Below, in pieces: positions 797 through 31,963 of a stretch of DNA of 64,000 nucleotides. The position numbers and the translations under genes were made by a program. The stretch comes from Holophagales bacterium (lineage in GTDB: Bacteria; Acidobacteriota; Thermoanaerobaculia; Multivoradales; Multivoraceae). The stretch covers positions 101,303-165,302 of the forward strand of contig VXZQ01000001.1 in the NCBI GenBank assembly GCA_009845425.1. Direction: 5' to 3'. Positions within the stretch are counted from its first letter, which is position 1, and every line of letters starts with the position of its first letter. Below the pieces are notes generated by a model. That model searched no databases, was not told the DNA's origin, and saw only the letters and a program-made list of their open reading frames with translations.

Positions 797-1832
797 CGCC
801 CGTCTCCTTCAGGAGTGGCACGCGGCGGAGCGCCGACAGGTCGGCCGCGCCGGTGCAGAACATGCAGACCCGCATCTCGAAAGCTGTGCGGGAGATCCGG
901 TCGACGACCGCTTCCGTCGACGCGTTGGCCGCCTCCAGGAACGGAAACGCCATACCGGCGATGTCCGCGCCGAGAGCCAGCGCCTTCGCCGCGTCGACGC
1001 CGGAGCGGATGCCGCCGCTGCCGATCACCTGCACGCCGGGCACCGCCGCCAACTGGCGGATCGACTCCGGCGTCGGCACTCCCCAATCGGCGAAGCGCTC
1101 GCCCAGCGCCACCTCGTCGGCTCGCGCCGCCTCGATGCGCGCCCAGCTCGTGCCTCCCACTCCGGCCGTGTCCAGGATCCGGACGCCGACGTTGGCGAGT
1201 TGCCGGCCGACCGCGGCCGAAACGCCGCAACCGATCTCCTTGACAACGACCGGCACGTCCAGCGCCTCGACCACCCGGGCGATCTTCGGCAGCAGTCCCC
1301 GGAAGTTCAGTTGGCCTTCCGGCTGCAGCGCCTCCTGCAGCGCATTCAGGTGCAGCACCAGGGCGTCCGCCTCGATCATGTCGACGGCCCGGCGGCACTC
1401 GTCGATGCCGTAGCCGTAGTTCAGTTGCACCGCACCCAGATTGGCCAGGATCGGCACGCTTGGAGCGAACTCGCGCACCCGGAACGTCGCCGCGGTCTCC
1501 GGATCGTCAATCGCCTTGCGCTGCGAACCGACGCCGAGAGCAACCCGCCTCGCCTCGGCCGCCTCGGCCAGACGGCGATTGATCTCCTCCGCGGCGCCCG
1601 TCCCCCCCGTCATGCAGGAGATGAGCAACGGCGCCTCGAGCTCCCGTCCCAGGAAGCCGGCGCCAATGCGGACGTCGTCGAAATCGATCTCCGGCAGCGC
1701 CCGATGCTCGAACCGGTAGTCGTCGAAGTAGCTGCGCTCGACCTGCATCCGCCGATCCAGCGCCAGCCGGATGTGCTCAGCCTTGCGATCCCGCTCTCCC
1801 TCCGCCGCCGCCAGCAGCGGACGGGTACTCAA
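789..1832 (-). CDS. fni: Type 2 (FMN-dependent) isopentenyl-diphosphate delta-isomerase
   Basis: RKAEHI, MTGG, GVGSQR, HLNALQE..QPEG, KEIGCG, GGTSW and SGGIRSG motifs; adjacent to HMGR. Confidence 0.95.
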   Translation of the reverse strand: MSTRPLLAAAEGERDRKAEHIRLALDRRMQVERSYFDDYRFEHRALPEIDFDDVRIGAGFLGRELEAPLLISCMTGGTGAAEEINRRLAEAAEARRVALGVGSQRKAIDDPETAATFRVREFAPSVPILANLGAVQLNYGYGIDECRRAVDMIEADALVLHLNALQEALQPEGQLNFRGLLPKIARVVEALDVPVVVKEIGCGVSAAVGRQLANVGVRILDTAGVGGTSWARIEAARADEVALGERFADWGVPTPESIRQLAAVPGVQVIGSGGIRSGVDAAKALALGADIAGMAFPFLEAANASTEAVVDRISRTAFEMRVCMFCTGAADLSALRRVPLLKETGDG

Positions 1833-1922
1833 GAAACCGCCCCAATCTTGCGGCTACACATGCGCGGCACTGTACCGGAATTCGCGTAAGTGAAGCGTTC
1901 ACGGTCGGATGCGGCTGCGGAA

Positions 1923-2035
1923 GCACCCGCCTGAAGCGGGTCCGGGGGGGAGGGTCCCAGACGGACTCTCTTCAGGCTGGACGTCGGGCATTGGCACCCG
2001 GTCAGCGGTGTAGGGGCGATCCGACCGCGCTCTGG
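1923..2035 (+). repeat. Dispersed structured repeat family A, copy 1
   Basis: GCACCCGCCTGAAGCGGGTCCGGGGGGGAGGGTCCCAG...CGACCGCGCTC, similar to the copies at 2532-2624 (-) and 28402-28502 (+). Confidence 0.75.
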
Positions 2036-2056
2036 AGGAGCGCAGTCTGGAAGTGC

Positions 2057-2323
2057 CTAGGCGAGCAGGCGATCCAGCGCGGTAACCAAGGTCGTGACTG
2101 CGCCAGCGACCAACACCATGCGCCACGTGAGACGAGCCTCCATCGCGCCCAGGTCGCCACGTAACTCGGCCAGATCGCCGCGCAACTCGGCCAAGTCGGA
2201 TCGAGTCGCGACCCCCTCCGTAGCGGCGGACCGTATCGTCGCGGTCACCGCCGCGGCTTGCGCCGGATCCATGCCGGCACCTTCGAGCGTCCGGGCCGCC
2301 GCAAGCGTGTCGAAGGTCGTCAT
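2057..2323 (-). CDS. Small DUF1640/CCDC90-like coiled-coil membrane protein (88 aa)
   Basis: N-terminus MTTFDTLAAARTLEGAGMDPAQAAA, VATRSDL plus DLAELRG heptads, C-terminal TM helix; TAGGCT 8 nt upstream of the ATG at 2323. Confidence 0.75.
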   Translation of the reverse strand: MTTFDTLAAARTLEGAGMDPAQAAAVTATIRSAATEGVATRSDLAELRGDLAELRGDLGAMEARLTWRMVLVAGAVTTLVTALDRLLA

Positions 2324-2531
2324 CCGGTTGGAGCCTAACAGTCGGTTCGGTGTGTTAGAGGCGGGGCTCGCGTAGCTACCTCCCTCTACGGACCTAGACG
2401 CAAAGCCGCCGTTTTCTCCATCAGCCGATGACGGCTGCCGCCTCGCGCGATCTTCCAGAAGCCGGCGAGGACGCCGGCGCACCCAATGTGGAGCGCCGTG
2501 AGCACGGTACAGCCTCCAGCCTGTCCCAGGG

Positions 2532-2624
2532 GTCGGACCGCAGCGAGCGCCGACCGTTCATCCACTCAGAAAGCGCGAGCGGCCGCTGGGACCCTCCCCT
2601 CCGGCCCCGCCGGCAGGCGGGTGC
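2532..2624 (-). repeat. Dispersed structured repeat family A, copy 2 (inverted relative to copy 1)
   Basis: Reverse complement reads GCACCCGCCTGCCGGCGGGGCCGGAGGGGAGGGTCCCAGCGGCCGCTC...TCGCTGCGGTCCGAC. Confidence 0.75.
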
Positions 2625-2666
2625 GTCCGACCACCCTCCGCCACCGCGCCGCAGCCGCGCGATATC

Positions 2667-3716
2667 TCAGCCGCCGATGCGGAACATCTCGACGCGCTGG
2701 GGAGCAGGCTGCAGGCCGGCGCGGAGGCGTTCGGCGCGGACTTCGGAGTAGCGGTCTTCGCGCTGGCGCCAGTGGGCGGCGAGGAAGGCGAGTAGCTCTT
2801 CGTCCGTGGCGCCGGCGCGCATACGGTCCCGGAGCGAGGGGCCGGTGTCGGCGAACAGGCAGGTGTAAAGCCGGCCGTCGGAGGAGAGGCGGGCCCTGGC
2901 GCAGTCGCCGCAGAAGGGGCGGCTGATCGAGGGGATGACGCCGAACTCCACGCCGTCGTCGAGGTAGCGGAAGCGCTCGGCGACGTCGCTGGGTTGGGCG
3001 CGGTCGACGGGTTCGAAGGGCCACCGTTCGGCGATGCGGTCCGCGATCCCGGAGGCAGTGACGACCTGGTCGAGGCTCCAGTCGTTCACTGTCCCGACAT
3101 CCATGAACTCGATGAAACGGACGATGTGGCCGCGTTCCTTGAAGTAACCGGCGATGTCGGCGACTTCGCCCTCGTTCGTGCCCTTCATGACCACCGTGTT
3201 GATCTTGATCGGACCGAGGCCGGCCTCCGCCGCCGCGTCGATGCCCTCGAGCACCTGGCCGACACCGTGGCCCAGTCCCGTCACCCGGCCGAAGACGTCG
3301 TCGTGCAGGGACTCGACGCTGACGGTCACCCGGTCGAGGCCGGCGTCCGCGAGCGCCCGCGCCTTCTGCGCCAGCAGGGCGCCGTTCGTCGTCAGCGCCA
3401 GGTCTTCGATTCCCGGCACCGCGGCCAGGATCCCGACCAGTTCCTCGATGTCACGGCGCAGCAACGGCTCGCCTCCCGTCAGCCGCAGCTTGCGGACGCC
3501 GAGCTGCACGAAGAGCCGGACCAGGCGCTCGATTTCCTCGAACGTCATCAACTGCTGCCTGGGCAGGAACCTGTACTCGCGGTCCGCCGGCATGCAGAAA
3601 GTGCAGCGGAAGTTGCAGCGGTCGATGACCGAGATGCGCAGGTCGCGCACCGGCCGGCCGAGGCGGTCGGTCACCGCGACCGAGGACGTGCCGCCATTCG
3701 TGGAGTCGAGGGTCAT
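2667..3716 (-). CDS. moaA: GTP 3',8-cyclase (molybdenum cofactor biosynthesis)
   Basis: DLRISVIDRCNFRCTFC radical-SAM motif, LTGGEPLLR, FCGDCARARL..DGRLYTCL, C-terminal GG. Confidence 0.96.
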   Translation of the reverse strand: MTLDSTNGGTSSVAVTDRLGRPVRDLRISVIDRCNFRCTFCMPADREYRFLPRQQLMTFEEIERLVRLFVQLGVRKLRLTGGEPLLRRDIEELVGILAAVPGIEDLALTTNGALLAQKARALADAGLDRVTVSVESLHDDVFGRVTGLGHGVGQVLEGIDAAAEAGLGPIKINTVVMKGTNEGEVADIAGYFKERGHIVRFIEFMDVGTVNDWSLDQVVTASGIADRIAERWPFEPVDRAQPSDVAERFRYLDDGVEFGVIPSISRPFCGDCARARLSSDGRLYTCLFADTGPSLRDRMRAGATDEELLAFLAAHWRQREDRYSEVRAERLRAGLQPAPQRVEMFRIGG

Positions 3717-17831: not shown

Positions 17832-18740
17832 TCAACCGGCCACAGCCCGCGTCGCCGGGGTGCTCGCAGCCCGTCGGACCCGCTTCTTCTTCGTCGCCTT
17901 GCGCTGTGCCGCCGCCTTCTTGGCAGGCTTGGACCCGGCGGGTGCCCCGTCCGCCTCCGCCTCGCCGTTCTTCGACAGGCTCGCCTTCAGCGCCTCCATC
18001 AGGTCGATGATCTGCGCCTGGGGCGCCTCCGTCTCGTCGTCCGCCAGCTCGCGACCGTCGATCTTGCTCTGGATCGCGTCCCAGAGCCGCTTGCGCACCT
18101 CGTCCGTGTACTGGTCCGGCTTGAAGTCGTCCGAAGCGATCTGCTCGATCAACTGCACGGCGAGTTCGAGCTCGCCCGGCTTGAGCTCCGTCTCCTCGCC
18201 CAGCGGGACCTCGTCGAAGGACTTCAGTTCGTCCTCGTACTTCAGTTGCTGCATCAGCAGGCCCGAAGCGAAGGGGCGCAGCATGACCAGGTACTGCTTG
18301 CCCCGCGCGGCGTGCTTGGCCAGCGCCGAGCGGCCGGTCTTGCGCATCGCCTCGCTGAGGAGCCGGTAGGCCCGCTCGCCGCCCTTCTCCGGGCCGAGGT
18401 AGTACGACTTCTCGAAGTAGATCGGCTCGACCTCGGCGAGCGGCACGAACTCCGTGATCTCGATCGCCGGCGACGCCTTCTCCTGGAGTTCCTTGATCTC
18501 CTCGTCGCTGAAGGTGACGTACTGGCCCTTGCCGAACTCGTAGCCCTTGATCGTCTCCTTCCGCTCGACGACCACGCCGGTGCGGGGGTTGACCAATTGC
18601 TGCTTGACCCGGGTGTTGTCGCTCGGATCGAGCATGTTGAAGCGGACCCCGCCGGAGGTTTCCGAGGTCGAGTAGAGCCGGACCGGGATGGAAACCAGGC
18701 CAAAGGAAACCGTGCCGGTGCCGACGGAACGAGCGGGCAT
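17832..18740 (-). CDS. ku: Non-homologous end-joining protein Ku
   Basis: GTVSFGLVSIPVRLY, IKGYE, YFEKSYYLGP, AY.LL.EAM, IIDLMEALKASL, basic C-terminal tail. Confidence 0.95.
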   Translation of the reverse strand: MPARSVGTGTVSFGLVSIPVRLYSTSETSGGVRFNMLDPSDNTRVKQQLVNPRTGVVVERKETIKGYEFGKGQYVTFSDEEIKELQEKASPAIEITEFVPLAEVEPIYFEKSYYLGPEKGGERAYRLLSEAMRKTGRSALAKHAARGKQYLVMLRPFASGLLMQQLKYEDELKSFDEVPLGEETELKPGELELAVQLIEQIASDDFKPDQYTDEVRKRLWDAIQSKIDGRELADDETEAPQAQIIDLMEALKASLSKNGEAEADGAPAGSKPAKKAAAQRKATKKKRVRRAASTPATRAVAG

Positions 18741-18898: not shown

Positions 18899-21478
18899 AT
18901 GCCGCACGGCAATCTGGACGCCTACCGCCGCAAGCGCTCGAGCGAGGCGACGCCCGAGCCGATGGGTTCCCGAACCACGGCCGTCGGCGGGCGCTTCGTG
19001 GTCCAGAAGCACGCCGCCCGGCGGGTCCACTTCGACCTGCGCCTGGAACTCGAGGGCACGCTCAAGTCCTGGGCGGTGCCGCGCGGCCCCAGCCTCGATC
19101 CCGACGTCAAGCGGCTCGCGGTCGCCACCGAGGACCACCCGCTGGAGTACGCCGACTTCGAGGGGTCCATCCCCGCCGGCAACTACGGCGCCGGCGCGAT
19201 GATCGTGTGGGACAGCGGCCGCTGGCTCCCGCTCGAGGACCCGGTTGCCGGGATGGAGAGCGGCAAGCTCCTGTTCGAACTCCACGGCTACAAGCTGCGC
19301 GGCGTCTGGACCCTGTTCCGCACCGGCGGCCGGCGCCGTTCCTCTGACGGCAGCCAGTGGCTGCTGATGAAGAAACCCGACGCGGCCGCACGCCCTCTGG
19401 AAGAAGGCCGCGACGGCGAGGACGAGCTGCCGCCCGAGTCCGTGCTGTCGGGCCTGACCGTCGAGGAGCTCCGGGACGGCTGCGACCGGATCGAAGAGGT
19501 GCGCGCAGGGATCGAAGCGTCGGATGCGCCGCGCCGGTCGGTGGACCCGCGGTCGCTGCCACTGATGCTCGCGACCGCCTCCGACCGGCCCTTCTCGCGC
19601 GCCGGCTGGATCTACGAACTGAAGTACGACGGCTACCGTCTGCTCGCCGCCAAGGAAGGCGGCAGCGTCTTCCTCCGCTACCGGCGCGGCGGCGACGTCA
19701 CCGCGCTCTACCCGGAATTGGCCCGCGCCTTGCGCCGGCTGCCGGTGGAATCGATCGTGCTCGACGGCGAGGTCACCGTGCTCGACGGCGGCGGCCGGCC
19801 CAGCTTCGCCAAGCTGCAGACACGGGCCCTGCTCAGCCGTCCCGTCGACATCGAACAGGCCTCGGTACGCCGGCCAGCGACGCTGTTCGCCTTCGACCTG
19901 GTCTCGTTCGAGGGCCACGACCTGCGGCCGCTGCCCCTGCTCGAGCGCAAGGGATGGCTGGCCCAGGTTCTGCCCCCAGCCGGGCCGCTCCGCTACTCGG
20001 ACCACATCGAGGAACGGGGCGAGGAGTTCTTCGAGCAGGCAGTTGCGATGGGACTCGAGGGGACCATGGCGAAGGACGGTGCGTCGCGGTACACGGGCCG
20101 CCGGTCGTCCTCCTGGGTCAAGCTGCGCGCCGAACGGACGGGGGACTTCGCCATCGTCGGCATGTCGTCGCCCAAGGGCAGCCGGGTGGGCCTGGGCTCG
20201 CTCCACCTCGCAGTATGGGAAGCGGCAGTCGGCGGGCTGGTCTACGCCGGACGCGTCGGCACGGGATTCGACGACGCCACCCTGGCGGAGCTGGCGGAGC
20301 GTCTGTCGGCGAGGCGGCGTGAGGATCCTCCATGCTGGGCGCCCGCGCCTGAGAGCCCCGCCGTGGAGACGGCGCTCACCGACGCCCACCTCCTCGACGG
20401 CCGCGTCGCCGACCAGACCTGGGTCGAGCCGAACGACGAGCTGGTCTGCGAGGTCCGCTTCAAGGAGTGGACTCCCCACGGCCTGCTCCGGCATCCCGTC
20501 TTCCTGCGCCTGCGGGACGACAAGCCGTTGGAGGACTGCGTCCGCCGTGACGAACCCCGCGGCCGCGAAGCCACCCTCCCGGCGCCGCCGGAGCGGCGCG
20601 TCGAGATCACGAACAAATCCAAGGTGTTCTGGCCGGACGAGGGTTACACCAAGGGCGATCTGATCGACTTCTACGCCACCGTTTCAGAGGCGATGCAGCC
20701 CTACCTCACCGACCGCCCGCTGGTGATGACCCGCTACCCCGACGGGATCGAGGGCAAGTCCTTCTTCCAGAAGAACGCGCCCGACTTCGCGCCGGACTGG
20801 CTGCACACGGTCAGGCTGACCAGCCCGCGGACCGGCAAGGATGTCGAGTACTTCGTCTGCCAGAACCGGGAGAGCCTGGTCTACGTGGCCAACCTGGCCG
20901 CGATTGTCCTCCACGTCTGGTCAAGCCGGCTGCACCAACTCGGCCAGCCGGACTGGTGCATCCTCGACCTCGACCCGAAGGACGCCCCCTTCGAGGACGT
21001 GATCGAGATCGCCCTCGCCATCCGGCGTCTGTGCCGGCAAATCGAGCTGCCCGGTTTCGTCAAGACCAGCGGCTCGAGCGGCCTGCACGTGCTGCTGCCG
21101 CTAGGCGGCGCCTGCACTTACGAGCAGTCGCGCAGCCTCGGTCAACTGATCGCCCAGATCATCTGCCGGCAACTGCCCGAGATCGCCACCGTCACCCGCA
21201 ATCCCGAACGCCGCGGCGGCAAGGTCTACATCGACTTCGTCCAGAACGGCCGCGGCCGGCTGCTCGTCGCCCCCTTCAGCGTCCGACCGCTGCCCGCGGC
21301 TCCGGTCTCGACGCCGCTGCGCTGGTCCGAGGTCAAGCCCGGCCTCGACCTGCGCGACCACAACATCCGCACCGTGCCGGAGCGGCTGAAGAAGCTGAAG
21401 ACCGACCCGCTTCGCGGCGTGCTGACGGAGCAGCCGGACCTGCTGGCGGCGCTGCGCCGGCTGAGCGAACTCGTGTAG
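18899..21478 (+). CDS. ligD: DNA ligase D (phosphoesterase-ligase-polymerase)
   Basis: PE domain FVVQKHAARRVHFDLRLE..HPLEY; ligase ELKYDGYR; polymerase RYPDG, FFQKN, DLDP, KTSGSSGLH. Confidence 0.95.
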   Translation: MPHGNLDAYRRKRSSEATPEPMGSRTTAVGGRFVVQKHAARRVHFDLRLELEGTLKSWAVPRGPSLDPDVKRLAVATEDHPLEYADFEGSIPAGNYGAGAMIVWDSGRWLPLEDPVAGMESGKLLFELHGYKLRGVWTLFRTGGRRRSSDGSQWLLMKKPDAAARPLEEGRDGEDELPPESVLSGLTVEELRDGCDRIEEVRAGIEASDAPRRSVDPRSLPLMLATASDRPFSRAGWIYELKYDGYRLLAAKEGGSVFLRYRRGGDVTALYPELARALRRLPVESIVLDGEVTVLDGGGRPSFAKLQTRALLSRPVDIEQASVRRPATLFAFDLVSFEGHDLRPLPLLERKGWLAQVLPPAGPLRYSDHIEERGEEFFEQAVAMGLEGTMAKDGASRYTGRRSSSWVKLRAERTGDFAIVGMSSPKGSRVGLGSLHLAVWEAAVGGLVYAGRVGTGFDDATLAELAERLSARRREDPPCWAPAPESPAVETALTDAHLLDGRVADQTWVEPNDELVCEVRFKEWTPHGLLRHPVFLRLRDDKPLEDCVRRDEPRGREATLPAPPERRVEITNKSKVFWPDEGYTKGDLIDFYATVSEAMQPYLTDRPLVMTRYPDGIEGKSFFQKNAPDFAPDWLHTVRLTSPRTGKDVEYFVCQNRESLVYVANLAAIVLHVWSSRLHQLGQPDWCILDLDPKDAPFEDVIEIALAIRRLCRQIELPGFVKTSGSSGLHVLLPLGGACTYEQSRSLGQLIAQIICRQLPEIATVTRNPERRGGKVYIDFVQNGRGRLLVAPFSVRPLPAAPVSTPLRWSEVKPGLDLRDHNIRTVPERLKKLKTDPLRGVLTEQPDLLAALRRLSELV

Positions 21479-21482
21479 AACG

Positions 21483-24400
21483 TCAGAACTGGAGCCGAAG
21501 ACCCGCGCGCACGCGGCGGCTGGTCTGGAAGGCGGCGGGAAGCGACTCGCGCGGATCCGGCCTTGCCCCCTGCGCTGCCGCGGCGGCGAGCAGGTCGGTG
21601 CGGCCCGGACCGACGAAGACCGGGTCGAGGTAGGCAAGCGGCCAGAGCTGGTTCGCGGCGTCCTGGTCGAAGACGTTGAGGGCCTCGGCGAAGAGGGACA
21701 ACCGCCGGTCCTCCGAGCGAAGCGGGACGCGGTACGTGAGAGACAGGTCGGCGCGCTTGAGATCGGCGCTCTTGACCAGGCCGTCCGGGCCAGACGGAAG
21801 GGGGGTCAGGCCGGTGCTGAGGATGCGGCTTGCCTCGTCGACCCGGACCGTCAGGGCTCGCGGTACGTAGGCGGCGCCCGTGCGGAAGCGGTAGACAAGC
21901 GCCATCAGCCAGCGTTCGCCCGGCGAGAGGACAAGCCAGCCGGAGAGCTGGTGCTCACGGTCGAGGCTCAGGCGGCGGCTGCCACTCGTGACATCGAACA
22001 CGTCGCAGGGGACGGGCGAGGAGCACAAGTCGAGCGCGGCGAGGACCGGATGGGCGCCGGGCAAGGTACCCGCCTCCATTCCGAGCCCGCCGGCCTCGTG
22101 GTTGCCGGTCAACCGGCTCAGGACGTATGAGAAGTGGATCCTCCAGGAGGGGCTGAAGCCGACGTGCGCGTTGAGCTCGGCGCCCCACCAGTCCTGCTCT
22201 AGCTGAGGCAGCTCGCCGCCGGCGCCCCGGCCGGGGGTCAGCAGCGTCGGAACTACCTCGCCGGCGTCCAGCAGCGGCATGAGACGAATGCCGTTCCGCA
22301 ACTGGCGTCGGGAGACGCGCGCCGAGATCACGACGTCGGGCAGGAACTGGTAGCCCGTCCCCAACTGGATCTCTCGCACGCGGGCTGGACGGAGGTCTGG
22401 ATCAACCGCCGCCCTCGCGAAGTCGAGGGGCGCGCCGCTGTAGCCGCCGGTGGCCTCCAGCGCCGCGACCGCGTCGAGATCGGAACGCCCCGCCCGCGGC
22501 CGGAAGACGTCGACGTGCCACCAGGCGGCGCCGCCGTAAGCCTTCCACCTGCCGCGGCCCGCGACGTCCCAGACGAACGCGAGCCGCGGTTCCGTGCGGT
22601 CTGCGAACTCGAGGTCGAGGGGACCCGCCTTTTCTTCTTCGGCGCGTAGTCCAACGTGCAGGGTCAGGTGCCTCTTGAAGGCTCCGCCCACGCGCCAGGC
22701 GTCCTGCGCGTAGAGCGCGCGCTTCTCCTGCCGGAGGCCGGCGGCGCCGAGCGCTCCTCCGCTCCAGGCCTCGGGCGTTCCGCCCGCAAACCGCAGCAAC
22801 CGTCCGGAACCCTGCGATCGGAGGAGTTCGAGGCTGCTCCTGGAGTCCTGAATGCCGATCTCCAGCGTGTGGTCGAACAGGAAGAACGACGGCTCCACCG
22901 CCCAGTTCCGGCGCTCCGCAGCGCGACGGACCCGGCCCGCCGGCGCGGCCTCGTACCAACCCGCCAGCCGCCCGGAGGCGGGCGCCGCGAAGTACAGGCC
23001 CGCGTCTTGCCATGGCTCGCCGTCCTCGATGAGGTCGGATCGACCGCCGAACACGCGCAACCACAGGCGGTCGGTGACTCCCCACTCGACGTTGAGGCTG
23101 GTCGTCTGCCGTCGCGACCGGTCGTTCTCGGTTCCATCCACCGACGGAAGGACTTCCAGCGCCGGTCGCCGACCGTCGAGGTCGCCGGACCCGGCATGGT
23201 GCTTGAGAGTCAGGTTGCTGGCCGAGCCGGCCCACCAGTCGAGCTTGCCGATCGATTGCTCGATCGTCTCGTCCCAGGTCATCGGCGCGACCGCGCCGAA
23301 CAGGCTCTCCGTGCCGCGGGCGCGGCTTCTCGAGTACCCGCCGAACGCACGGGCCCGCTTGTCCCGTAGCGGGCCGCCGGCAAAGACGGTCGCCTCGTCG
23401 CCCTCGATGCGTCGCCGGTCCCTGCCGCCGGCCGGCGATTCTCCGGCACCGAACAGGCGCAGGGCGAGCCGCTCGCCGTTGTCGAGCGGCTCGACCGTCG
23501 ACCAGCCGCCGTTCACCTGCCAGTCGGTCCCCCCCGAACGCGTGATCAGGTCGATGTGGGGCCCGGCCATCGTCGCCGCCAGTTCCATCGTCCAGACGCG
23601 CACCTGATCCACCCAGCGGGGATCGATGGCGGTCGACCCTGGTTCGCGAAGCGCGCTCTCCTGACCGTCGACGCGGTAGTTGGCGAAGCCGGGCGGCCAG
23701 CCGTTGACCGCGACATCCGGGCCCAGCGCGTCGAGGCCGGACGCCAGGTCCAGGTTGAGCGCCGCGACGGCGCCCGGTAGCTGCCGCAGGTCGTCGCCCG
23801 CGAGGACGTTACCGTCGCTGCCGGTGACCACGTCGAGCAACGGCGAGGAAACAAGGTCGAGCGCGGAGGCGCTGCCGGCCCTCATGTGGAAGTCGACCCG
23901 CAGCACGCCGCCCGCAACCAGGATCAGGTTCTCCACGACGGAGGTCGCGTAGCCGTCCACGGTCGCCTCGACGTAGTAGTCGCCCGGTGGTAGACCCGGC
24001 GCCCGAAAACTGCCGCCGCGACCGGCGCGAACGGTCTGGGCGCTGTGCAACTGATCGCCGGTGATCCTGATCTCGGCTCCCGGCAACGGGACGTCCGTCG
24101 CCGCGTCGCGCACCTGGCCGTTGATCTCGCCGTTCAGGCCCGCCGAGGCGGGGCTCGGAGACAACACGGTCAGGCCAACGACTGACGCGACCAGCACCGC
24201 CGTTACCGCAGGCGCGGCCGCCAGACGGGTCGGCTCCTGCTTCGGCAGGAGTAGTGAAGCGAAGGCCGACACCAGGCCGACCACCGCGCCGGCCTGCAAC
24301 ACTGCCGCGAGTTCGAAGCGATCAGCGAGTTCTCCGATACACCAGGTCGCGATCCCGCCCGTCGCGAACAGGAATCCGAGCGCCGTCCCCGAAGCCAGAC

Positions 24401-25403
24401 CCCGACGCCATGGCAGCAACTCCTGAGCCATGACGATCAGGATGGAGTGCGATGCTCCCAGCAGCGCTCCGCAGGGCAGTACGACGGCGAAGATCCAGCC
24501 CCCGGATCCGGGCAGCACGCCCAGCAGGAGGGCACCGAGCAGCGTGGTCAGGAAGACGATCGGCCGTCGACCCCAACGCTCGGCCCAGGCGCCCGCCAGG
24601 ACCGCGGTCAGCGCGCCGCCCAGCAGGAACAGCGCGCTGGCGGAGCCCTGAGCCACGGAGCTGTATCCCCGCTGACTCAGCAGGAGGGGCAGGAACGCCA
24701 TCGTTCCGAACATTGCCCAGGAGCGGCTGGCGAACACCAGGCCAAGGAGAGCGATGACGCCGCCGCGCACCTGGCGGCCGGCGGACACGGTGGCGTCACC
24801 CGCCTGATTCTCGTTCGGTTGCGACGCCGCGGGCGCCGGGTGAACCCGTCGCGGTCCCATCGCGAAGGCCATGAACAGCGGCACGGGCGCCGCGAAGAGC
24901 AGGAGCCAGTAGATCCCGTTCAGCCCCGCCCGATCGAGGGCCAGTCCCGCCAGGACCGGCCCGGTCGTCAGCCCGAGCTGACCGCAGAAGAAGAAGATGG
25001 CCGTGAAGGTGGCGGAGCGGGCCAGGTTCACCGTGCTGGAGTGCATCACGCCCAGCGGATGAAAGGCGCCCGAAGCAACCGCGGCGAGCGCGAACGGAAT
25101 GAGAAACAGGACGAATCTCCCCGTCGCGGCGGCTGCTGCGACCGCCAGGCCCATGCAGGCGAAGTTGAAAGCGACGCTGAACGGACCCAGGAAACGGCTG
25201 CCGACCCGGTCGACCAACCAGCCGAAGGCCGGCTGCGTGGTGCCGGCGAGAACCTGGAACAGTCCCACCGCGAGGCCGATCTGGGCGGCGCTGAGGCCGA
25301 GCGGCGCCTGGAGGAAGGCCAGCAGGACCGGCCCCATGCTGTTGAAGATGTCGATGCCGAGGTGACCGACCGTCACCGCGGCGAAGATTCGCCGGCCGTT
25401 CAT
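21483..25403 (-). CDS. Fusion of an Fsr-like MFS transporter (aa 1-~390), an internal signal peptide and an Oar-like TonB-dependent receptor (aa ~422-1306)
   Basis: MFS motifs QPAFGWLVDRVGSR, FHPLG, GAWAERWGRR. Then SPSPASA|GLNGEINGQVRDA...LPPGDY (carboxypeptidase-regulatory-like domain), YAQDAW..LTLHVGLR, PRLAFVWDVAGRG, and terminal RAGLRLQF. No internal stop. Confidence 0.8.
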   Translation of the reverse strand: MNGRRIFAAVTVGHLGIDIFNSMGPVLLAFLQAPLGLSAAQIGLAVGLFQVLAGTTQPAFGWLVDRVGSRFLGPFSVAFNFACMGLAVAAAAATGRFVLFLIPFALAAVASGAFHPLGVMHSSTVNLARSATFTAIFFFCGQLGLTTGPVLAGLALDRAGLNGIYWLLLFAAPVPLFMAFAMGPRRVHPAPAASQPNENQAGDATVSAGRQVRGGVIALLGLVFASRSWAMFGTMAFLPLLLSQRGYSSVAQGSASALFLLGGALTAVLAGAWAERWGRRPIVFLTTLLGALLLGVLPGSGGWIFAVVLPCGALLGASHSILIVMAQELLPWRRGLASGTALGFLFATGGIATWCIGELADRFELAAVLQAGAVVGLVSAFASLLLPKQEPTRLAAAPAVTAVLVASVVGLTVLSPSPASAGLNGEINGQVRDAATDVPLPGAEIRITGDQLHSAQTVRAGRGGSFRAPGLPPGDYYVEATVDGYATSVVENLILVAGGVLRVDFHMRAGSASALDLVSSPLLDVVTGSDGNVLAGDDLRQLPGAVAALNLDLASGLDALGPDVAVNGWPPGFANYRVDGQESALREPGSTAIDPRWVDQVRVWTMELAATMAGPHIDLITRSGGTDWQVNGGWSTVEPLDNGERLALRLFGAGESPAGGRDRRRIEGDEATVFAGGPLRDKRARAFGGYSRSRARGTESLFGAVAPMTWDETIEQSIGKLDWWAGSASNLTLKHHAGSGDLDGRRPALEVLPSVDGTENDRSRRQTTSLNVEWGVTDRLWLRVFGGRSDLIEDGEPWQDAGLYFAAPASGRLAGWYEAAPAGRVRRAAERRNWAVEPSFFLFDHTLEIGIQDSRSSLELLRSQGSGRLLRFAGGTPEAWSGGALGAAGLRQEKRALYAQDAWRVGGAFKRHLTLHVGLRAEEEKAGPLDLEFADRTEPRLAFVWDVAGRGRWKAYGGAAWWHVDVFRPRAGRSDLDAVAALEATGGYSGAPLDFARAAVDPDLRPARVREIQLGTGYQFLPDVVISARVSRRQLRNGIRLMPLLDAGEVVPTLLTPGRGAGGELPQLEQDWWGAELNAHVGFSPSWRIHFSYVLSRLTGNHEAGGLGMEAGTLPGAHPVLAALDLCSSPVPCDVFDVTSGSRRLSLDREHQLSGWLVLSPGERWLMALVYRFRTGAAYVPRALTVRVDEASRILSTGLTPLPSGPDGLVKSADLKRADLSLTYRVPLRSEDRRLSLFAEALNVFDQDAANQLWPLAYLDPVFVGPGRTDLLAAAAAQGARPDPRESLPAAFQTSRRVRAGLRLQF

Positions 25404-25413
25404 CCGCGGCCCG

Positions 25414-27198
25414 CTACCCGCCCGCGGGCGCGTCTCCTCTCGGCGCGCTGACGTCGCCGCCCCGGCGTGGATCCGCCACGCCGAGCAGGCTCGACCCCTC
25501 TATCAGGATCGCGGACACGTCCCCGCTCAGGCCGCGCTCGACCAGCTCGTGACCCCTCGCCGCCAGATCCTCGAGCGTCGCGCCGCCGAGACCGCCTTCC
25601 TCGTAGAACACCTGGTCCGGCCACGCCTGGTGATGCACCCGCGGGCTCTCGACCGCCTGCCGCAGCCCCATTCCGTGGTCGATGACGTTCGAGATCACGT
25701 GGTAGACGGTGGTGATGATCGTCGGGCCGCCGGGCGTGCCGACGACCATCATCAGTTCGCCCTCCGGGTCGAGCACGATGCTCGGGGTCATGGACGACAA
25801 CATCCGCTTGCCCGGAACGATGGCGTTGTTCTCGCCCTCGACCAGCCCGAACTGATTCGGCTGACCCGGCGAGGCGGCGAAGTCGTCCATCTCGTTGTTG
25901 AGCAGGAAACCGGCCCCGGTGACGGTGACGGCGTTCCCGAAACCGCTGTTGATCGTCGTCGTGACCGACGCCGCGTTGCCCCAGCGGTCGACCACGGAGT
26001 AATGGGTCGTCTCGGTGCTCTCCGCAGGCGGCGCGACCTCGATCGGCGGCAGCGGCCGCGCCCTCTCGGGATCGATCCGGGCACGCAGCCCGTCGGCGTA
26101 GTCCTGCGACTCGAACTGCCCGCGCGGTACGTCGACGAAGTCCGGGTCGCCGAGCAGAGTGTTCCGGTCCCGAAATGCGAGCCGCATGGCCTCGGCCTCC
26201 AGGTGGATCAGATCGGGACTGCCGAACGGGGGCAGGGAATCCCAGCCCTCGAGGATATTGAGGATCAGGCCCAGGGTCAGGCCGCCGGAAGAAACCGGCG
26301 GCATCGATTGGATCGTGTGTCCGCGATAGGCGACTTCGACCGGCTCGCGCCACACCGGCGCGTAGTCCTCGAGGTCCTGGTGCGAGATGAGTCCCCCGCC
26401 CCGCCCCATCTCGGCCACGATCAGGTCGGCCACTCGGCCGCGATAGAAGCCGTCCGGACCCTGCTCCGCGATCGCCTGAAGCGTGGCCGCAAGGTCCGGC
26501 TGTTCCAGTATCGCGCCCGGCGGCGGCGCCTCGCCATCGATCAGGAACTGCCTGGCACTCGCCGGGAACCGCTTGAGCCGTGGCGCCGCCGATTCGAGAC
26601 TCCGCGATCGCGGCTCGTCGACTTCGTGGCCCCGGGCCAACTCCATAGCCGGCGCGATCAGGTCGCTCCAGGGGAGGGATCCGTATGTCAGGTGCATCTC
26701 CCAGAGACCGGCCACCGAACCCGGCACGCCGGCCGCGAGGTGACCGACAACCGCGCTCTCCGCGACCTTGCCTTCATCGTCCAGAAACATGTCGCGCGTT
26801 GCCGCGCCGGGCGCCTTCTCGCGGTAGTCCAGCGCACGGACTTCGCCGTCGTTCGACCGGTAGACCAGGAACCCGCCGCCGCCAATGTTGCCGGCGGCCG
26901 GCAGGACCGCGGCAAGCGCGAAGCCGACGGCCACCGCGGCGTCGATCGCGTTTCCGCCCTGCTCCAGGACCGCCGCGCCGACGTCGGAGGCGAGGCCATG
27001 ACCGCTGACGACCATGCCGTGCGCGCCTTGAGCCGCCGGCGCCGTACCGGCGAGACCCCAGGACGACGGGCCTAAACCAGCTTCTCTTGCCGCCTCGGGC
27101 CCCGCGCAGGAAACTCCGAGCAGGAACGCGCCGACCAGAGCGCCGGCAACCGGGCGGCGAGCGAGCGGACGCGAGGCAATGGTCGCGAGCCGGCTCAT
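25414..27198 (-). CDS. ggt: Gamma-glutamyltransferase, exported (possible lipoprotein)
   Basis: GGNAIDAAVA, GNIGGGGF, DYREKAP, autocleavage motif ETTHYSVVD, NNEMDDF, KRMLSSMTP, GTPGG; LLGVSC lipobox-like; start 27198 or 27210. Confidence 0.95.
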   Translation of the reverse strand: MSRLATIASRPLARRPVAGALVGAFLLGVSCAGPEAAREAGLGPSSWGLAGTAPAAQGAHGMVVSGHGLASDVGAAVLEQGGNAIDAAVAVGFALAAVLPAAGNIGGGGFLVYRSNDGEVRALDYREKAPGAATRDMFLDDEGKVAESAVVGHLAAGVPGSVAGLWEMHLTYGSLPWSDLIAPAMELARGHEVDEPRSRSLESAAPRLKRFPASARQFLIDGEAPPPGAILEQPDLAATLQAIAEQGPDGFYRGRVADLIVAEMGRGGGLISHQDLEDYAPVWREPVEVAYRGHTIQSMPPVSSGGLTLGLILNILEGWDSLPPFGSPDLIHLEAEAMRLAFRDRNTLLGDPDFVDVPRGQFESQDYADGLRARIDPERARPLPPIEVAPPAESTETTHYSVVDRWGNAASVTTTINSGFGNAVTVTGAGFLLNNEMDDFAASPGQPNQFGLVEGENNAIVPGKRMLSSMTPSIVLDPEGELMMVVGTPGGPTIITTVYHVISNVIDHGMGLRQAVESPRVHHQAWPDQVFYEEGGLGGATLEDLAARGHELVERGLSGDVSAILIEGSSLLGVADPRRGGDVSAPRGDAPAGG

Positions 27199-27281
27199 CG
27201 CGGAAGGCACGGTATCAAAGCAGCCGGATACGCTTGTTCCATCCCCGCCCGGAGACGACCTCCCTACACCGGAGAAGAACC

Positions 27282-29718: not shown

Positions 29719-30792
29719 ATGGCAGAGCCAGCGCGAATCGACGTTCACGGTACGGAAGGAGCCCCCCATCGTCGTCCCGTCTCGGCGAACAGCGGCGGCG
29801 ACCTGAGAGAGGCGCTCGACGACTTCCTCGAGCTGAAGGAGATGGTCGCGGCCCGGGAGGGTGATCGAGCCCTTCACGACCAGCCGCAGATGGTGAGTCG
29901 CTTCTACGATGTCGTCACCAAGTTCTATGAGTACGGCTGGGGCCAGTCGTTCCACTTCTCCCCACGACGGTCCGGCGAGAGCCTCCGGGACGCCGTCCGC
30001 CGTCACGAGATCAGCATCGGCGAACTCCTGTCCCTCGGGCCGGGAACGAAGGTCGCCGACATCGGATGCGGTGTCGCCGGGCCGCTGGTCACCATCGCGA
30101 GTTCCACCGGGGCCAGCATCACGGGGATCAACCTCAACGCGTACCAGATCGCGAGAGGCCAGCGATCGCTGCACCGCGCCGGCCTTCAGGAAACATGCGG
30201 TTTCCTGCTCGCCAGCTTCATGGACGTGCCCCTCGACGACGGCCATTTCGATGCCGCGTACTCGTTCGAATCGACCTGCCACGCGCCCGACAAGACCCTC
30301 TGCTTCAAGGAGCTCTACCGGCTGCTCAGGCCGGGAGGTGAACTCGCTCTGATCGACTGGTGCCTGACCGAGGACTTCGACGAGCACGACCCGGTCCATC
30401 GCGACATTCGGGACCGACTCGAGTTTGGAAACGCGACGCCCAACCTGCTCACGACCTCCAGCCAACTCGACCTCGTTCGGACCGTCGGATTCGAGATTCT
30501 CTCGAGCCGCGACCAGGCGCTTGAGTGCGACCCGGACGCTCCCTGGTACCGGTCGCTCCAGGGCCGTGACCTTTCGCTCGCGTCACTCGGGCGGATTCCC
30601 GCCGGCCGATGGTTTACTGCCAAGGCCACCAGCCTGCTGGAGCTGCTGCGCATCGCGCCCGCCGGCACCGGCGAGGCCGCCCGCATCCTGAACGTCGCGG
30701 CCGACTCCCTCGTCGAGGCCGGCGTGGCGGGAATCTTCACGCCGTCCTTCCTGATCCACGCGCGCAAACCGGACGGTTCGGTCTCCTCGTAG
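29719..30792 (+). CDS. Sterol 24-C-methyltransferase (ERG6/SMT)-like SAM-dependent methyltransferase
   Basis: SMT region I FYEYGWGQSFHFS, SAM motif ADIGCGVAGP, TGINLNAYQI, region III YSFESTCHAP, LRPGG, C-terminal GIFTP.....ARKP. Confidence 0.88.
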   Translation: MAEPARIDVHGTEGAPHRRPVSANSGGDLREALDDFLELKEMVAAREGDRALHDQPQMVSRFYDVVTKFYEYGWGQSFHFSPRRSGESLRDAVRRHEISIGELLSLGPGTKVADIGCGVAGPLVTIASSTGASITGINLNAYQIARGQRSLHRAGLQETCGFLLASFMDVPLDDGHFDAAYSFESTCHAPDKTLCFKELYRLLRPGGELALIDWCLTEDFDEHDPVHRDIRDRLEFGNATPNLLTTSSQLDLVRTVGFEILSSRDQALECDPDAPWYRSLQGRDLSLASLGRIPAGRWFTAKATSLLELLRIAPAGTGEAARILNVAADSLVEAGVAGIFTPSFLIHARKPDGSVSS

Positions 30793-30808: not shown

Positions 30809-31963
30809 ATGGGCTTGAGGACTCGCCGTTCAGGGCGCCGGGAACCCACCACATCCGACGACCTGCGTCTCGCCGGCTATCCCCATCCCTATCCGGACGG
30901 CTGGTACCGGCTCACGACTTCGAGGTCGCTACGGCGCGGGCAGATCCGCTACGTGGAGTGCCTCGGCCGCGCCGTGGTCGTGTGGCGGAGCAAAGACGGC
31001 GACGACGTGCACGCCATGCAGGCGTTCTGCCCCCACCTGGGCGCCAATCTCCGGCATGGCCGCGTCCGCGAGGACCGCATCGAGTGCCCGTTCCACAACT
31101 GGCAGTTCACCGGCGACGGCCGGGCGGCCCGCGTGCCCTACAGCGACAGCGTGCCGTCCCGCGTCGCGGCCGAGAGCTTCCCCGTCCAGGACGTGAACGG
31201 GCAGGTCTTCCTCTATCACCGGGCCGCCGGACCAAACCAGCGAGCCGGCGACGACGTCCCCTACCCGGTTCCCCGCATCCATGAGGTCGACGACGGCAGT
31301 TTCGTCTACCGCGGGCACCACGACGCTGGCCGCGTTCGCATGCACATCGTCGAGTTCCTCGAGAACACGGCCGACTTCGCCCACTTCAAGTACATCCACA
31401 GCCAGATGACGGTCCCATGGACGCAGATTCCCGTTCCCGGCGTCCAGCTCGAACACAGGCCGGGCTGGGAACTGGACGACGAGCGGCCCTGGAGGTTGTA
31501 CTTCCTGGACGAAACCGTGCTCAAGCTTCGCGGCCGCCGTCTCGAACGAACCCGGGCAAGCGCCCGGGTCACGTGCACCGGACCTGCCAGCATCATCAAC
31601 TTCCGGATCACGATCCCCGGCGCCGGCGACGTCGAGATCGTGCAGACCCACCTTCCGGTCGCGCCGCTCGAGCAGCAGGTCGACTTCCACTGGTTCGCCG
31701 ACCGCCGGATGCCGCGCCTGCTCGTGTGGTACGTCGTCGGCAACTGGATCTCCCAATGGCGGCACGACATCCAGATCTGGGAGAACAAGACCTACACGAC
31801 CCACCCGACCCTCTGCCGCGACGACGGGCCCGTCGTCCGGCTGCGGCGCTGGTACCGGCAGTTCTTTCCGGAGTGGCAGACGCCAGCCGTGCCGCCCGAG
31901 GCGCCGCCGAGCTCCCCGCGCGAGCGGGCCGAACGCCCGCTAGCCGGCGTCGCCTCGAACTGA
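30809..31963 (+). CDS. Rieske non-heme iron sterol oxygenase/desaturase (Neverland/DAF-36/KshA-like)
   Basis: PYPDGWY, Rieske CPHLG...CPFHNW, mononuclear Fe motif HIVEFLENTADFAHFKYIH, C-terminal DIQIWENK.Y...P.L...DGP...LRRWY.QF. Confidence 0.85.
   Translation: MGLRTRRSGRREPTTSDDLRLAGYPHPYPDGWYRLTTSRSLRRGQIRYVECLGRAVVVWRSKDGDDVHAMQAFCPHLGANLRHGRVREDRIECPFHNWQFTGDGRAARVPYSDSVPSRVAAESFPVQDVNGQVFLYHRAAGPNQRAGDDVPYPVPRIHEVDDGSFVYRGHHDAGRVRMHIVEFLENTADFAHFKYIHSQMTVPWTQIPVPGVQLEHRPGWELDDERPWRLYFLDETVLKLRGRRLERTRASARVTCTGPASIINFRITIPGAGDVEIVQTHLPVAPLEQQVDFHWFADRRMPRLLVWYVVGNWISQWRHDIQIWENKTYTTHPTLCRDDGPVVRLRRWYRQFFPEWQTPAVPPEAPPSSPRERAERPLAGVASN

Follow-up and report, generated by a model that had tools for sequence, protein, structure and literature searches.

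The open reading frame (ORF) at positions 21483..25403 on the minus strand of the window, i.e., the whole 64,000-nucleotide stretch of DNA analyzed, is a real fusion between an inner-membrane MFS permease and an outer-membrane TonB-type transporter, which are joined by a retained signal peptide. It begins with an ATG, comprises 1306 codons plus a stop, and is read through without any internal stop; both the ORF list and the translation bear out the single uninterrupted frame announced in a preliminary description of this DNA. A frame that encodes both an alpha-helical transporter of the inner membrane and a beta-barrel transporter of the outer membrane is a topological oddity, since the chain must be either split or stretched across the envelope. 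The fusion also provides strong "Rosetta stone" evidence that the MFS and the TonB-type transporter belong to one pathway.

Domain Content of the Fused Protein

The N-terminal half (residues 1–386; 24246..25403, minus strand) is an MFS permease with 12 transmembrane helices. PF07690 (MFS_1) matches residues 21–248 with 90.7 bits, above the curated cut-off of 33.4. The AlphaFold2 model of residues 1–530, which is of moderate confidence (mean pLDDT 70.4), contains 12 helices in two halves of six, the last of which ends at residue 383, with a central loop at residues 183–209; it was used to count the helices instead of a 19-residue hydropathy scan, which fused and divided them. The best Foldseek matches of this half are all MFS structures (TMt 0.69–0.79), including FLVCR1 (E 2.8e-11). 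No NCBIfam model scored above its cut-off for the fused protein, and when PDB was searched by sequence, the MFS half had no match and the small domain described below matched carboxypeptidase D only. The basic loops GWLVDRVGSRF and GAWAERWGRRP are of the cytoplasmic type. Since there are 12 helices and basic loops of this type, the C-terminus of the MFS half is expected to lie inside, and the linker would therefore insert with its N-terminus in and its C-terminus out: the argument previously made for a 13th helix in signal-peptide orientation holds.

The linker (residues 387–421; 24141..24245, minus strand), as judged from the alignments, the AlphaFold2 model, and the orthologues and paralogues, once served as the N-terminal signal peptide encoded by the barrel gene. 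It consists of a basic n-region (K/R..R), a hydrophobic core, and a Pro-rich c-region ending in A-x-A before Gly422; residues 390–424 are modeled with low confidence (pLDDT < 50 in the model of residues 1–530). Sites for signal peptidase I have small residues at positions -1 and -3 and no Pro at +1. In the alignment of 37 fused genes, the residue at -1 is invariably Ala, that at -3 is Ala in 35 cases and Val in two, position -2 is free (10 different residues), Pro is found at -4 to -6, and +1 is occupied by G, S, Q, or R and never by Pro, so that all 37 combine the basic n-region, the hydrophobic core, and an acceptable site. In unfused orthologues and in paralogues, the true N-terminal signal peptides occupy the same position as the linker, and the predicted mature protein begins where it does in the stand-alone paralogues (AAA before QTTGDIRGQVRD and similar). 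It differs from usual signal peptides in being internal and in its longer core: the uncharged stretch before the cut amounts to 28–32 residues in the fusions vs. 17–22 in nine orthologues and paralogues with true N-terminal signal peptides. Long hydrophobic cores can serve as uncleaved anchors. The dN/dS ratio of the linker ranged from 0.21 to 0.79 over 13 pairs.

Directly after the predicted cut comes a CarboxypepD_reg N-terminal extension (residues 422–510; 23874..24140, minus strand), placed as in three stand-alone paralogues. PF13620 was detected at residues 427–507 (59.8 bits; cut-off 32.3), residues 422–510 form a beta sandwich in both AlphaFold2 models, and the segment L423–R432 is invariant.

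The remainder (residues 511–1306; 21486..23873, minus strand) is modeled as a plug and a 22-strand barrel of the TonB-dependent-transporter type, and ends in RAGLRLQF with a terminal Phe. The AlphaFold2 model of residues 422–1306, again of moderate confidence (mean pLDDT 62.6), was aligned by VIA-align with full-length BtuB (residues 6–594, plug and barrel) over 514 residues (Z 26.0, rmsd 3.2 A), and a strand-like conserved stretch (L515..S520-P-L-L-D524) lies where the N-terminus of BtuB aligns. Foldseek retrieved YddB (E 6.7e-25) as well as Cir, PqqU, and FptA, and the Atlas neighbors of this half are clusters with the composition CarboxypepD_reg+OMP_b-brl_4+TonB_dep_Rec. These models and matches support a TonB-dependent-transporter fold with a plug. 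At the sequence level, the barrel half is very diverged: in the window protein, Pfam Plug (PF07715) was not matched, TonB_dep_Rec (PF00593) did not reach its cut-off, and OMP_b-brl_4 remained sub-threshold (16.5 bits vs. a cut-off of 30). Many of the fused homologues carry a precomputed PF00593 match, and the distant relatives P0149 and P0161 carry both Plug and PF00593; 17 columns are invariant even across distant barrel relatives. The genome contains seven TonB_C matches. The architecture initially proposed (MFS, internal signal peptide, CarboxypepD_reg, and Oar-like TonB-type barrel) is thus confirmed by Pfam, AlphaFold2, Foldseek, and the structure alignment, and its landmarks were correctly located: Gly422 of GLNGEING starts at nucleotide 24140, and the in-frame CTG (Leu394) at 24224 is preceded by AGGAG 9 nt upstream.

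Distribution and Origin of the Fusion

The same open frame was identified in 38 of the 42 genomes of the genus, with 68–100% identity. The genus consists of uncultured, sponge-associated Acidobacteriota. The host genome has a GC content of about 70%, at which long open frames are likelier to occur by chance; the frame is beyond chance at this GC content because it is open in so many genomes of the genus at these identities. Thirty-two of the 37 matches in public protein data are full-length fused clusters. Contigs from two other studies (X5 record 12 and X7 record 19) span the junction with 0 gaps, as do contigs from RNA libraries (X22, records 5 and 6), the latter not being proof of transcription. 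Over the 13 pairs, dN/dS was 0.10–0.22 in the MFS half and 0.12–0.29 in the barrel half. The preliminary description had considered an assembly error, which does not account for the same frame in 37 other genomes and the gap-free independent contigs, and a recent accident or decay, which is at odds with these dN/dS values; nor did the receptor half show the relaxed selection that was to have spoken against a functional fusion. The homologues keeping the fusion that it proposed to look for in related genomes were found throughout most of the genus.

No other such fusion was detected when 1.84 billion representative proteins were searched exhaustively. A word-limited search for longer proteins that contain this MFS returned only the same family (34 fused-family matches and one fragment), and no report of an MFS–TonB-receptor fusion was found in a literature search conducted mostly outside subscription journals.

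Twelve sister genera within the family, represented by 15 genomes, have the MFS only in unfused form. At six of the 12 outgroup loci, it is followed on its 3' side by a separate gene of 711–853 aa encoding a CarboxypepD_reg domain and a barrel with a signal peptide of its own; in four of these six, the barrel start and the MFS stop share nucleotides (GTGA, ATGA, or TTGA). At the other six loci, no barrel gene follows the MFS. No MFS orthologue (E <= 1e-50) was found in 105 genomes from 11 other families of the order. As far as the genomes compared indicate, the fusion is a one-off merger of the frames of two operon neighbors at the base of the genus, since the sister genera keep two genes and the NTGA overlap between start and stop is present at four of the 12 loci. 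The ancestor would have had a barrel start codon overlapping the MFS stop (NTGA), and, at the base of the genus, an indel merging the two frames would have abolished this stop and turned the signal peptide of the barrel into an internal one. The CTG of Leu394 (24222..24224, minus strand), at -28 from the predicted cut, is probably what remains of the NTG start codon which, in the ancestor, overlapped the stop of the MFS gene, as suggested by the outgroup junctions, by the genome G010 described below, and by the conservation of NTG: this codon is NTG in 32 of the 37 fused genes (CTG in 27, TTG in four, and GTG in one).

In one member of the genus, G010, the gene has been split again by a frameshift exactly in the linker. 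The junction there reads CTGA, and the CTG at -28, which overlaps the MFS stop, is the only start-like codon of the barrel frame. Both halves still have dN/dS values of 0.24–0.32, and a split with both halves under constraint would fit with their working as separate polypeptides. The possibility that G010 might be a keeper of the ancestral split was considered and rejected: in the MFS tree, it falls among the fused forms, beside L014, in a clade of 31 rows with an SH-aLRT support of 98, and the AU test rejects an all-fused clade excluding G010 (p 0.0166), the group having been named after the tree was seen and the branch of G010 being long (0.6). On this tree, the split is a secondary frameshift and not the ancestral state. 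Separate ORFs in relatives, which had been put forward as evidence against the fusion, therefore do occur outside the genus, where they are the ancestral state, and in one member of the genus, but not in the rest of it.

Predicted Fate of the Precursor

We infer, with good support from the conserved cleavage-site residues, that signal peptidase I probably cuts the precursor to give one inner-membrane and one outer-membrane transporter, cleavage, localization, and TonB dependence all being predicted. The 12-helix MFS would be inserted co-translationally with its C-terminus in the cytoplasm, and the kept signal peptide would insert as a 13th helix (N-in/C-out), leading to the Sec-dependent export of the 885-residue C-terminal part. 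Signal peptidase I would cut between Ala421 and Gly422, just behind the conserved A-x-A, and the C-terminal Phe signal would direct the released barrel precursor to the outer membrane. Each translation event would yield a single TonB-type transporter together with a single MFS, the latter bearing an extra helix. A precursor cut in this way would be a natural bacterial polyprotein giving a 1:1 pair of transporters for two membranes, and would mean that a signal peptide located internally, behind 12 helices, can support the export of an outer-membrane barrel.

The -28 codon raises the question of internal initiation. Ribosomes might start at this NTG (the CTG at 24224, a relic of the old start), the barrel being made separately and the long fusion being minor or silent; a GGAG, AGGA, or GGGG motif is located 4–14 nt 5' of the codon in 20 of the 32 genes with NTG, and the start-like CTG of G010 likewise speaks for this reading. 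However, five of the 37 genes have no NTG at -28 (L037 and L045, for example, have Phe), and CTG is the commonest Leu codon expected at 70% GC, which makes its presence weak evidence. The product starting at Leu394 would be deprived of the basic n-region, as Arg393 and Lys389 are located upstream. In addition, the stop is still lost in 38 of the 42 genomes, although a harmful or useless long form should regain stops or frameshifts more often. Internal initiation is consequently unlikely.

It is improbable, for other reasons, that the protein remains uncut, either as one chain in both membranes (a covalent trans-envelope transporter) or with the barrel tethered at the inner membrane. The hydrophobic stretch of 28–32 residues, longer than in true signal peptides, is certainly sufficient for a stable 13th helix, and cleavage is itself a reading of the sequence. 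But the strict Ala at -1, the Ala or Val at -3, and the free -2 in all 37 genes form the pattern of a used peptidase site and not that of a plain anchor. Helix 13 is separated from the plug by only about 7 residues, the 85-residue beta sandwich, and about 18 residues, a span estimated at no more than about 12 nm, which is below the typical width of the periplasm; and G010 appears to survive with its halves split. An envelope-spanning uncleaved form is therefore a weaker option than cleavage. There is a similarly slim chance that the precursor is uncut or cut late, so as to serve as a conduit through both membranes or to deliver the barrel by obligatory co-translational targeting to SRP/Sec, borrowed from the MFS; in either case, the biogenesis of an outer-membrane protein would follow a so far undescribed route. 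The idea that the fusion is an artefact (a misassembly or a sequencing indel) or a dying pseudogene, to which the broken frames in four genomes of the genus (G008, G010, G011, and G016) and the chance long open frames favored by high GC might lend themselves, is extremely improbable and already refuted as far as sequence data allow, given the shared frame, the independent contigs, the dN/dS values well below 1 in both halves, the columns invariant across distant barrel relatives, and the fact that the break in G008 sits at contig ends.

Genetic Neighborhood and Comparison with Known Systems

A gamma-glutamyltranspeptidase (GGT) gene (25414..27210; Pfam G_glu_transpept, 546.8 bits) is located on the same (minus) strand and ends 10 nt before the ATG of the fusion. 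Its product carries an N-terminal signal peptide. The GGT gene lies upstream of the fusion at all 38 loci of the genus; in the sister genera, a GAF-GGDEF gene is located between the GGT and MFS genes. The transporter pair and the exported GGT might conceivably work together to take up a gamma-glutamyl compound, or products derived from it, across both membranes, the substrate being a weak guess. This idea about the substrate comes from gene order alone.

The clear ancestry of the fusion, from stop/start overlap to fusion and one secondary re-split, provides a natural experiment on the extent to which translational coupling and fusion can replace each other. Few functional handles of this kind exist for uncultured sponge-associated Acidobacteriota.

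The N-terminal half resembles the Fsr-type MFS permeases in that its modeled fold is a 12-helix MFS fold and the fused homologue P0034 is named [quoted passage not shown] by one source; it differs in that its closest unfused relatives are 46–58% identical. The mode of processing proposed here has a counterpart in FbcH of Bradyrhizobium japonicum, a cytochrome b-c1 precursor which is cut at an internal signal peptide to give two proteins. The same logic would apply, since in FbcH, too, an internal segment resembling a signal peptide links a polytopic inner-membrane protein to an exported one; the exported part of FbcH, however, stays at the inner membrane, whereas here it would become a beta-barrel in the outer membrane.

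In the C-terminal half, the parts follow one another as in the Oar-like CarboxypepD_reg TonB-dependent transporters (Myxococcus xanthus Oar; PF13620 with PF25183/PF00593), namely a signal peptide, CarboxypepD_reg 2–4 residues past the cut, a plug, a 22-strand barrel, and a terminal Phe. Oar is described as a typical TonB-dependent transporter, which needs TonB and the proton-motive force (PMC6434023, PMC11658791). Here, in contrast, an MFS protein carries the transporter as its C-terminal part, and the similarity is low, the best outside relatives being about 31% identical (111–115 bits). Oar exports a protease. In the sucrose CUT locus of Xanthomonas campestris (suxA/suxC), a TBDR, an inner-membrane secondary transporter, and a substrate-processing enzyme are co-encoded, and uptake needs both transporters (PMC1790865). 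The set formed here by GGT, MFS, and TonB-type barrel is comparable at the level of the genes, but the enzyme is a gamma-glutamyltranspeptidase and is not glycoside-active, and the two transporters, which are encoded by separate genes in CUT loci, are encoded here in one reading frame.

The fused frame and its conservation in the genus

The gene located at 21483..25403 (-) starts with ATG and consists of 1306 codons in a single frame. The Pfam analysis of its product yielded MFS_1 (residues 21-248, 90.7 bits) and CarboxypepD_reg (residues 427-507, 59.8 bits), the outer-membrane barrel being matched only below threshold, and the NCBIfam scan added nothing specific; the protein ends in ...LRLQF. 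The coordinates proposed in the preliminary description are correct: nt 24140 is the first base of Gly422, and the Leu394 codon is the CTG at 24224, which AGGAG precedes by 9 nt.

In a large protein collection, 32 of the 37 matches are fused proteins of 1300-1336 aa showing 67-100% full-length identity, the other five comprising fragmentary and frameshifted forms plus one unrelated MFS. The frame is free of stops over residues 1-1306 in 38 of the 42 genomes of the genus, that of the window included. The exceptions are G008, in which contig ends interrupt the fusion, G011 and G016, in which the frame breaks within the barrel part, and G010, in which the MFS and the barrel occupy separate frames. 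Thirty-eight loci of the genus were fetched, from which 37 intact fused genes were extracted (the intact genome G057 was left out). Contigs from two other studies span 23700-24700 without gaps, differing at 23 and 52 bases; the sole indels are a +1/-1 pair (24515/24520) that offset each other in one minor contig. The dN/dS ratios (Nei-Gojobori, 13 pairs) amount to 0.10-0.22 in the MFS half, 0.12-0.29 in the barrel half and 0.21-0.79 in the linker, and the synonymous divergence across the fusions of the genus reaches about 1 per site. Judging from these sequences, the fusion is real and conserved in the genus.

The sequencing runs containing this DNA are labelled as sponge, coral or marine metagenomes, and one homologue is named by its source as coming from Acidobacteriota. 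In run X22, from the metatranscriptome of a sponge sample, two contigs of a related strain (window 23962..24383) cross the junction, differing at 41-42 positions and having no gaps; this hints at the presence of the fused region in RNA-derived data and is no proof of transcription. Divergence is faster in the fusion protein (72-73% identity) than in the neighbouring gamma-glutamyltranspeptidase (GGT) and LigD (82-83%) at loci L015-L017, and the barrel half has no close relative beyond the genus.

Separate genes in the sister genera

The sister genera (15 genomes representing 12 further genera of the family) carry an orthologue of the MFS half only, unfused and showing 52-58% identity. Twelve of their loci were fetched, and at six of these a separate gene encoding 711-853 aa lies downstream of the MFS gene on the same strand. 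The six products all have an N-terminal signal peptide and are colinear with the barrel half of the window protein, the identity being just 22-26%; CarboxypepD_reg was detected in all five of those scanned with Pfam, and the C-terminal residue is Phe or Trp in four, Leu in one and Arg in one (near a contig end). At four of the six loci, the MFS stop and the start codon of this gene overlap (GTGA, ATGA, GTGA, TTGA), the frame being offset by one base. The neighbouring genes, GGT upstream and LigD downstream, are retained. Since the genes are separate in the sister genera, with overlapping stop and start codons, the fusion appears to have arisen by an indel merging both frames of a translationally coupled pair, and the Leu394 codon to lie at about the position of the former start codon.

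No MFS orthologue was found at E <= 1e-50 in 105 genomes from 11 other families of the order. When 1.84 billion representatives were searched exhaustively with residues 1-1200 (HMMER), one fused representative (P0024) was followed by the barrel piece of G010 (P0037) and by P0041, a 427-aa MFS of the same length as the MFS ORF of G010. Unfused MFS of about 400 aa (<=51% identity) make up the other matches together with Oar-like proteins (about 31% identity), and none of the matches listed apart from P0024 covers both halves. Two proteins are possible further candidate MFS fusions: P0058 (785 aa), with MFS at 13-311 and then about 470 residues without any Pfam domain, and P0038 (867 aa), with about 300 such residues ahead of MFS.

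Folds, linker and maturation

In the AlphaFold2 model of residues 1-530 (23 aligned sequences, mean pLDDT 70.4), the MFS half has 12 helices, the last ending at residue 383, the linker stretch 390-424 has a pLDDT <50, and residues 425-517 form a beta sandwich. Among PDB structures, the best matches are MFS transporters without exception (e.g., FLVCR1, E 2.8e-11, TMt 0.72). Two basic loops, GWLVDRVGSRF following helix 2 and GAWAERWGRRP following helix 8, correspond to the cytoplasmic MFS signature. They place both ends of the MFS inside, so the linker has to cross in an N-in, C-out orientation. Residues 422-1306 were modelled as a large barrel (25 sequences, pLDDT 62.6, pTM 0.69), for which the best 50 Foldseek matches are TonB-dependent transporters throughout, including YddB (6.7e-25), Cir, PqqU and FptA. 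BtuB residues 6-594 (plug and barrel) align on residues 73-885 of this model (VIA-align, Z 26.0, rmsd 3.2 Å, 514 residues). The ESM Atlas neighbours of the barrel half belong to CarboxypepD_reg+OMP_b-brl_4+TonB_dep_Rec clusters (826-968 aa, mostly Acidobacteriota), and the window genome contains seven TonB_C matches.

In the 37 fused genes, the linker has a basic n-region (K/R-x-x-x-x-R) and a hydrophobic core with an invariant Pro398, followed by a Pro-rich turn. Relative to the predicted signal peptidase I cut, Ala occupies position -1 in all 37, whereas at -3 35 genes encode Ala and 2 encode Val; +1 is taken by G, S, Q or R, and ten residue types occur at -2 (S, A, W, M, V, Y, F, H, R, T); the ten residues beyond +1, LNGEINGQVR, are invariant. 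In three stand-alone paralogues from the same genome, CarboxypepD_reg starts 2-4 residues past the A-x-A cut, as it does in the fusion. By this pattern, the linker behaves like a signal peptide in use. The uncharged stretch ahead of the cut is 28-32 residues long in the fusions versus 17-22 in nine true N-terminal signal peptides, which may reflect a new role as a full membrane-spanning helix and could lower the efficiency of cleavage.

These analyses establish the architecture of the fusion, the topology of its parts, its conservation and ancestry, and the cleavage-site pattern; beyond this, a maturation pathway can be proposed. The MFS would be inserted co-translationally and the linker as helix 13, the C-terminal 885 residues would be exported via Sec, signal peptidase I would cut between Ala421 and Gly422, and the barrel would assemble in the outer membrane. 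An uncut chain reaching across the periplasm is unlikely, given the small number of residues between helix 13 and the plug (by our own estimate, for a typical periplasm width). It is quite improbable that the barrel is made by internal initiation at the relic NTG, which is missing at that site in 5 of the 37 fused genes and would give a product devoid of the basic n-region.

In G010, the MFS frame ends with TGA after ...LPEPEREP, and the barrel resumes in another frame (LKAGPPLSAVVVALTIVPGLFRAQPACA|GLNGEING), no ATG, GTG or TTG being present near the junction. The codon overlapping the MFS stop is CTG (CTGA, -28 from the cut; about 4770-4780 in L013, the G010 locus), and the barrel may start there or by termination-reinitiation; the deposited 868-aa protein begins within the small domain, without a signal peptide. 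On the MFS tree (rooted with 12 outgroup sequences), G010 falls within the fused clade with a branch length of 0.6 versus a median of 0.05, and the AU test rejects an all-fused clade excluding G010 (p 0.0166, the group having been defined after the tree was seen). The dN/dS of both its halves against fused relatives is 0.24-0.32, that of fused-to-fused pairs being 0.15-0.29. We read G010 as a probable secondary re-split that is tolerated, which fits the idea that the halves of the fusion normally act as separate polypeptides.

Neighbouring genes and known systems

The GGT gene (546.8 bits), which is present at all 38 loci of the genus, lies on the same strand and ends 10 nt upstream of the fusion, and its product has a signal peptide ending in ...LLGVSC|A. 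Where the genus has this 10-nt gap only, the GGT and MFS genes of L019, the locus of sister-genus genome G050, are separated by a gene for a GAF-GGDEF diguanylate cyclase (1565..2797 (+)), and an ORF of similar size occupies that position in L023. Uptake loci that group a TonB-dependent receptor, a permease and an enzyme have been described (PMC1790865). By analogy with these loci, and based on gene order only, GGT and the fusion may import a gamma-glutamyl compound, which would cross the outer membrane via the barrel and be hydrolysed in the periplasm, the product entering via the MFS. Export instead of import is also a possible reading, efflux being the role usually ascribed to Fsr-type MFS. 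Oar, too, is needed to export a protein (PMC6434023; PMC11658791).

On the other side, the full LigD gene (phosphoesterase, ligase and primase-polymerase; 18899..21478 (+)) is convergent with the fusion, ending 5 nt from its stop, and is a conserved neighbour at most loci of the genus as well as in the sister genera; it forms a divergent NHEJ pair with Ku (17832..18740 (-)). A methyltransferase with a sterol-methyltransferase C-terminal domain (29719..30792 (+), 67.8 bits) and the adjoining Rieske/KshA_C oxygenase (30809..31963 (+)) are a possible sterol-modifying pair in an acidobacterium.

Word searches of a paper library returned no earlier report of an MFS-TonB-receptor fusion. The two halves are members of known superfamilies, there are precedents for polyproteins being cut at internal signal peptides, e.g., FbcH, and the pairing of a TonB-dependent receptor with an inner-membrane permease is likewise known. 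What is new is that transporters of two membranes are encoded in one frame, and that this join has lasted through the whole genus.
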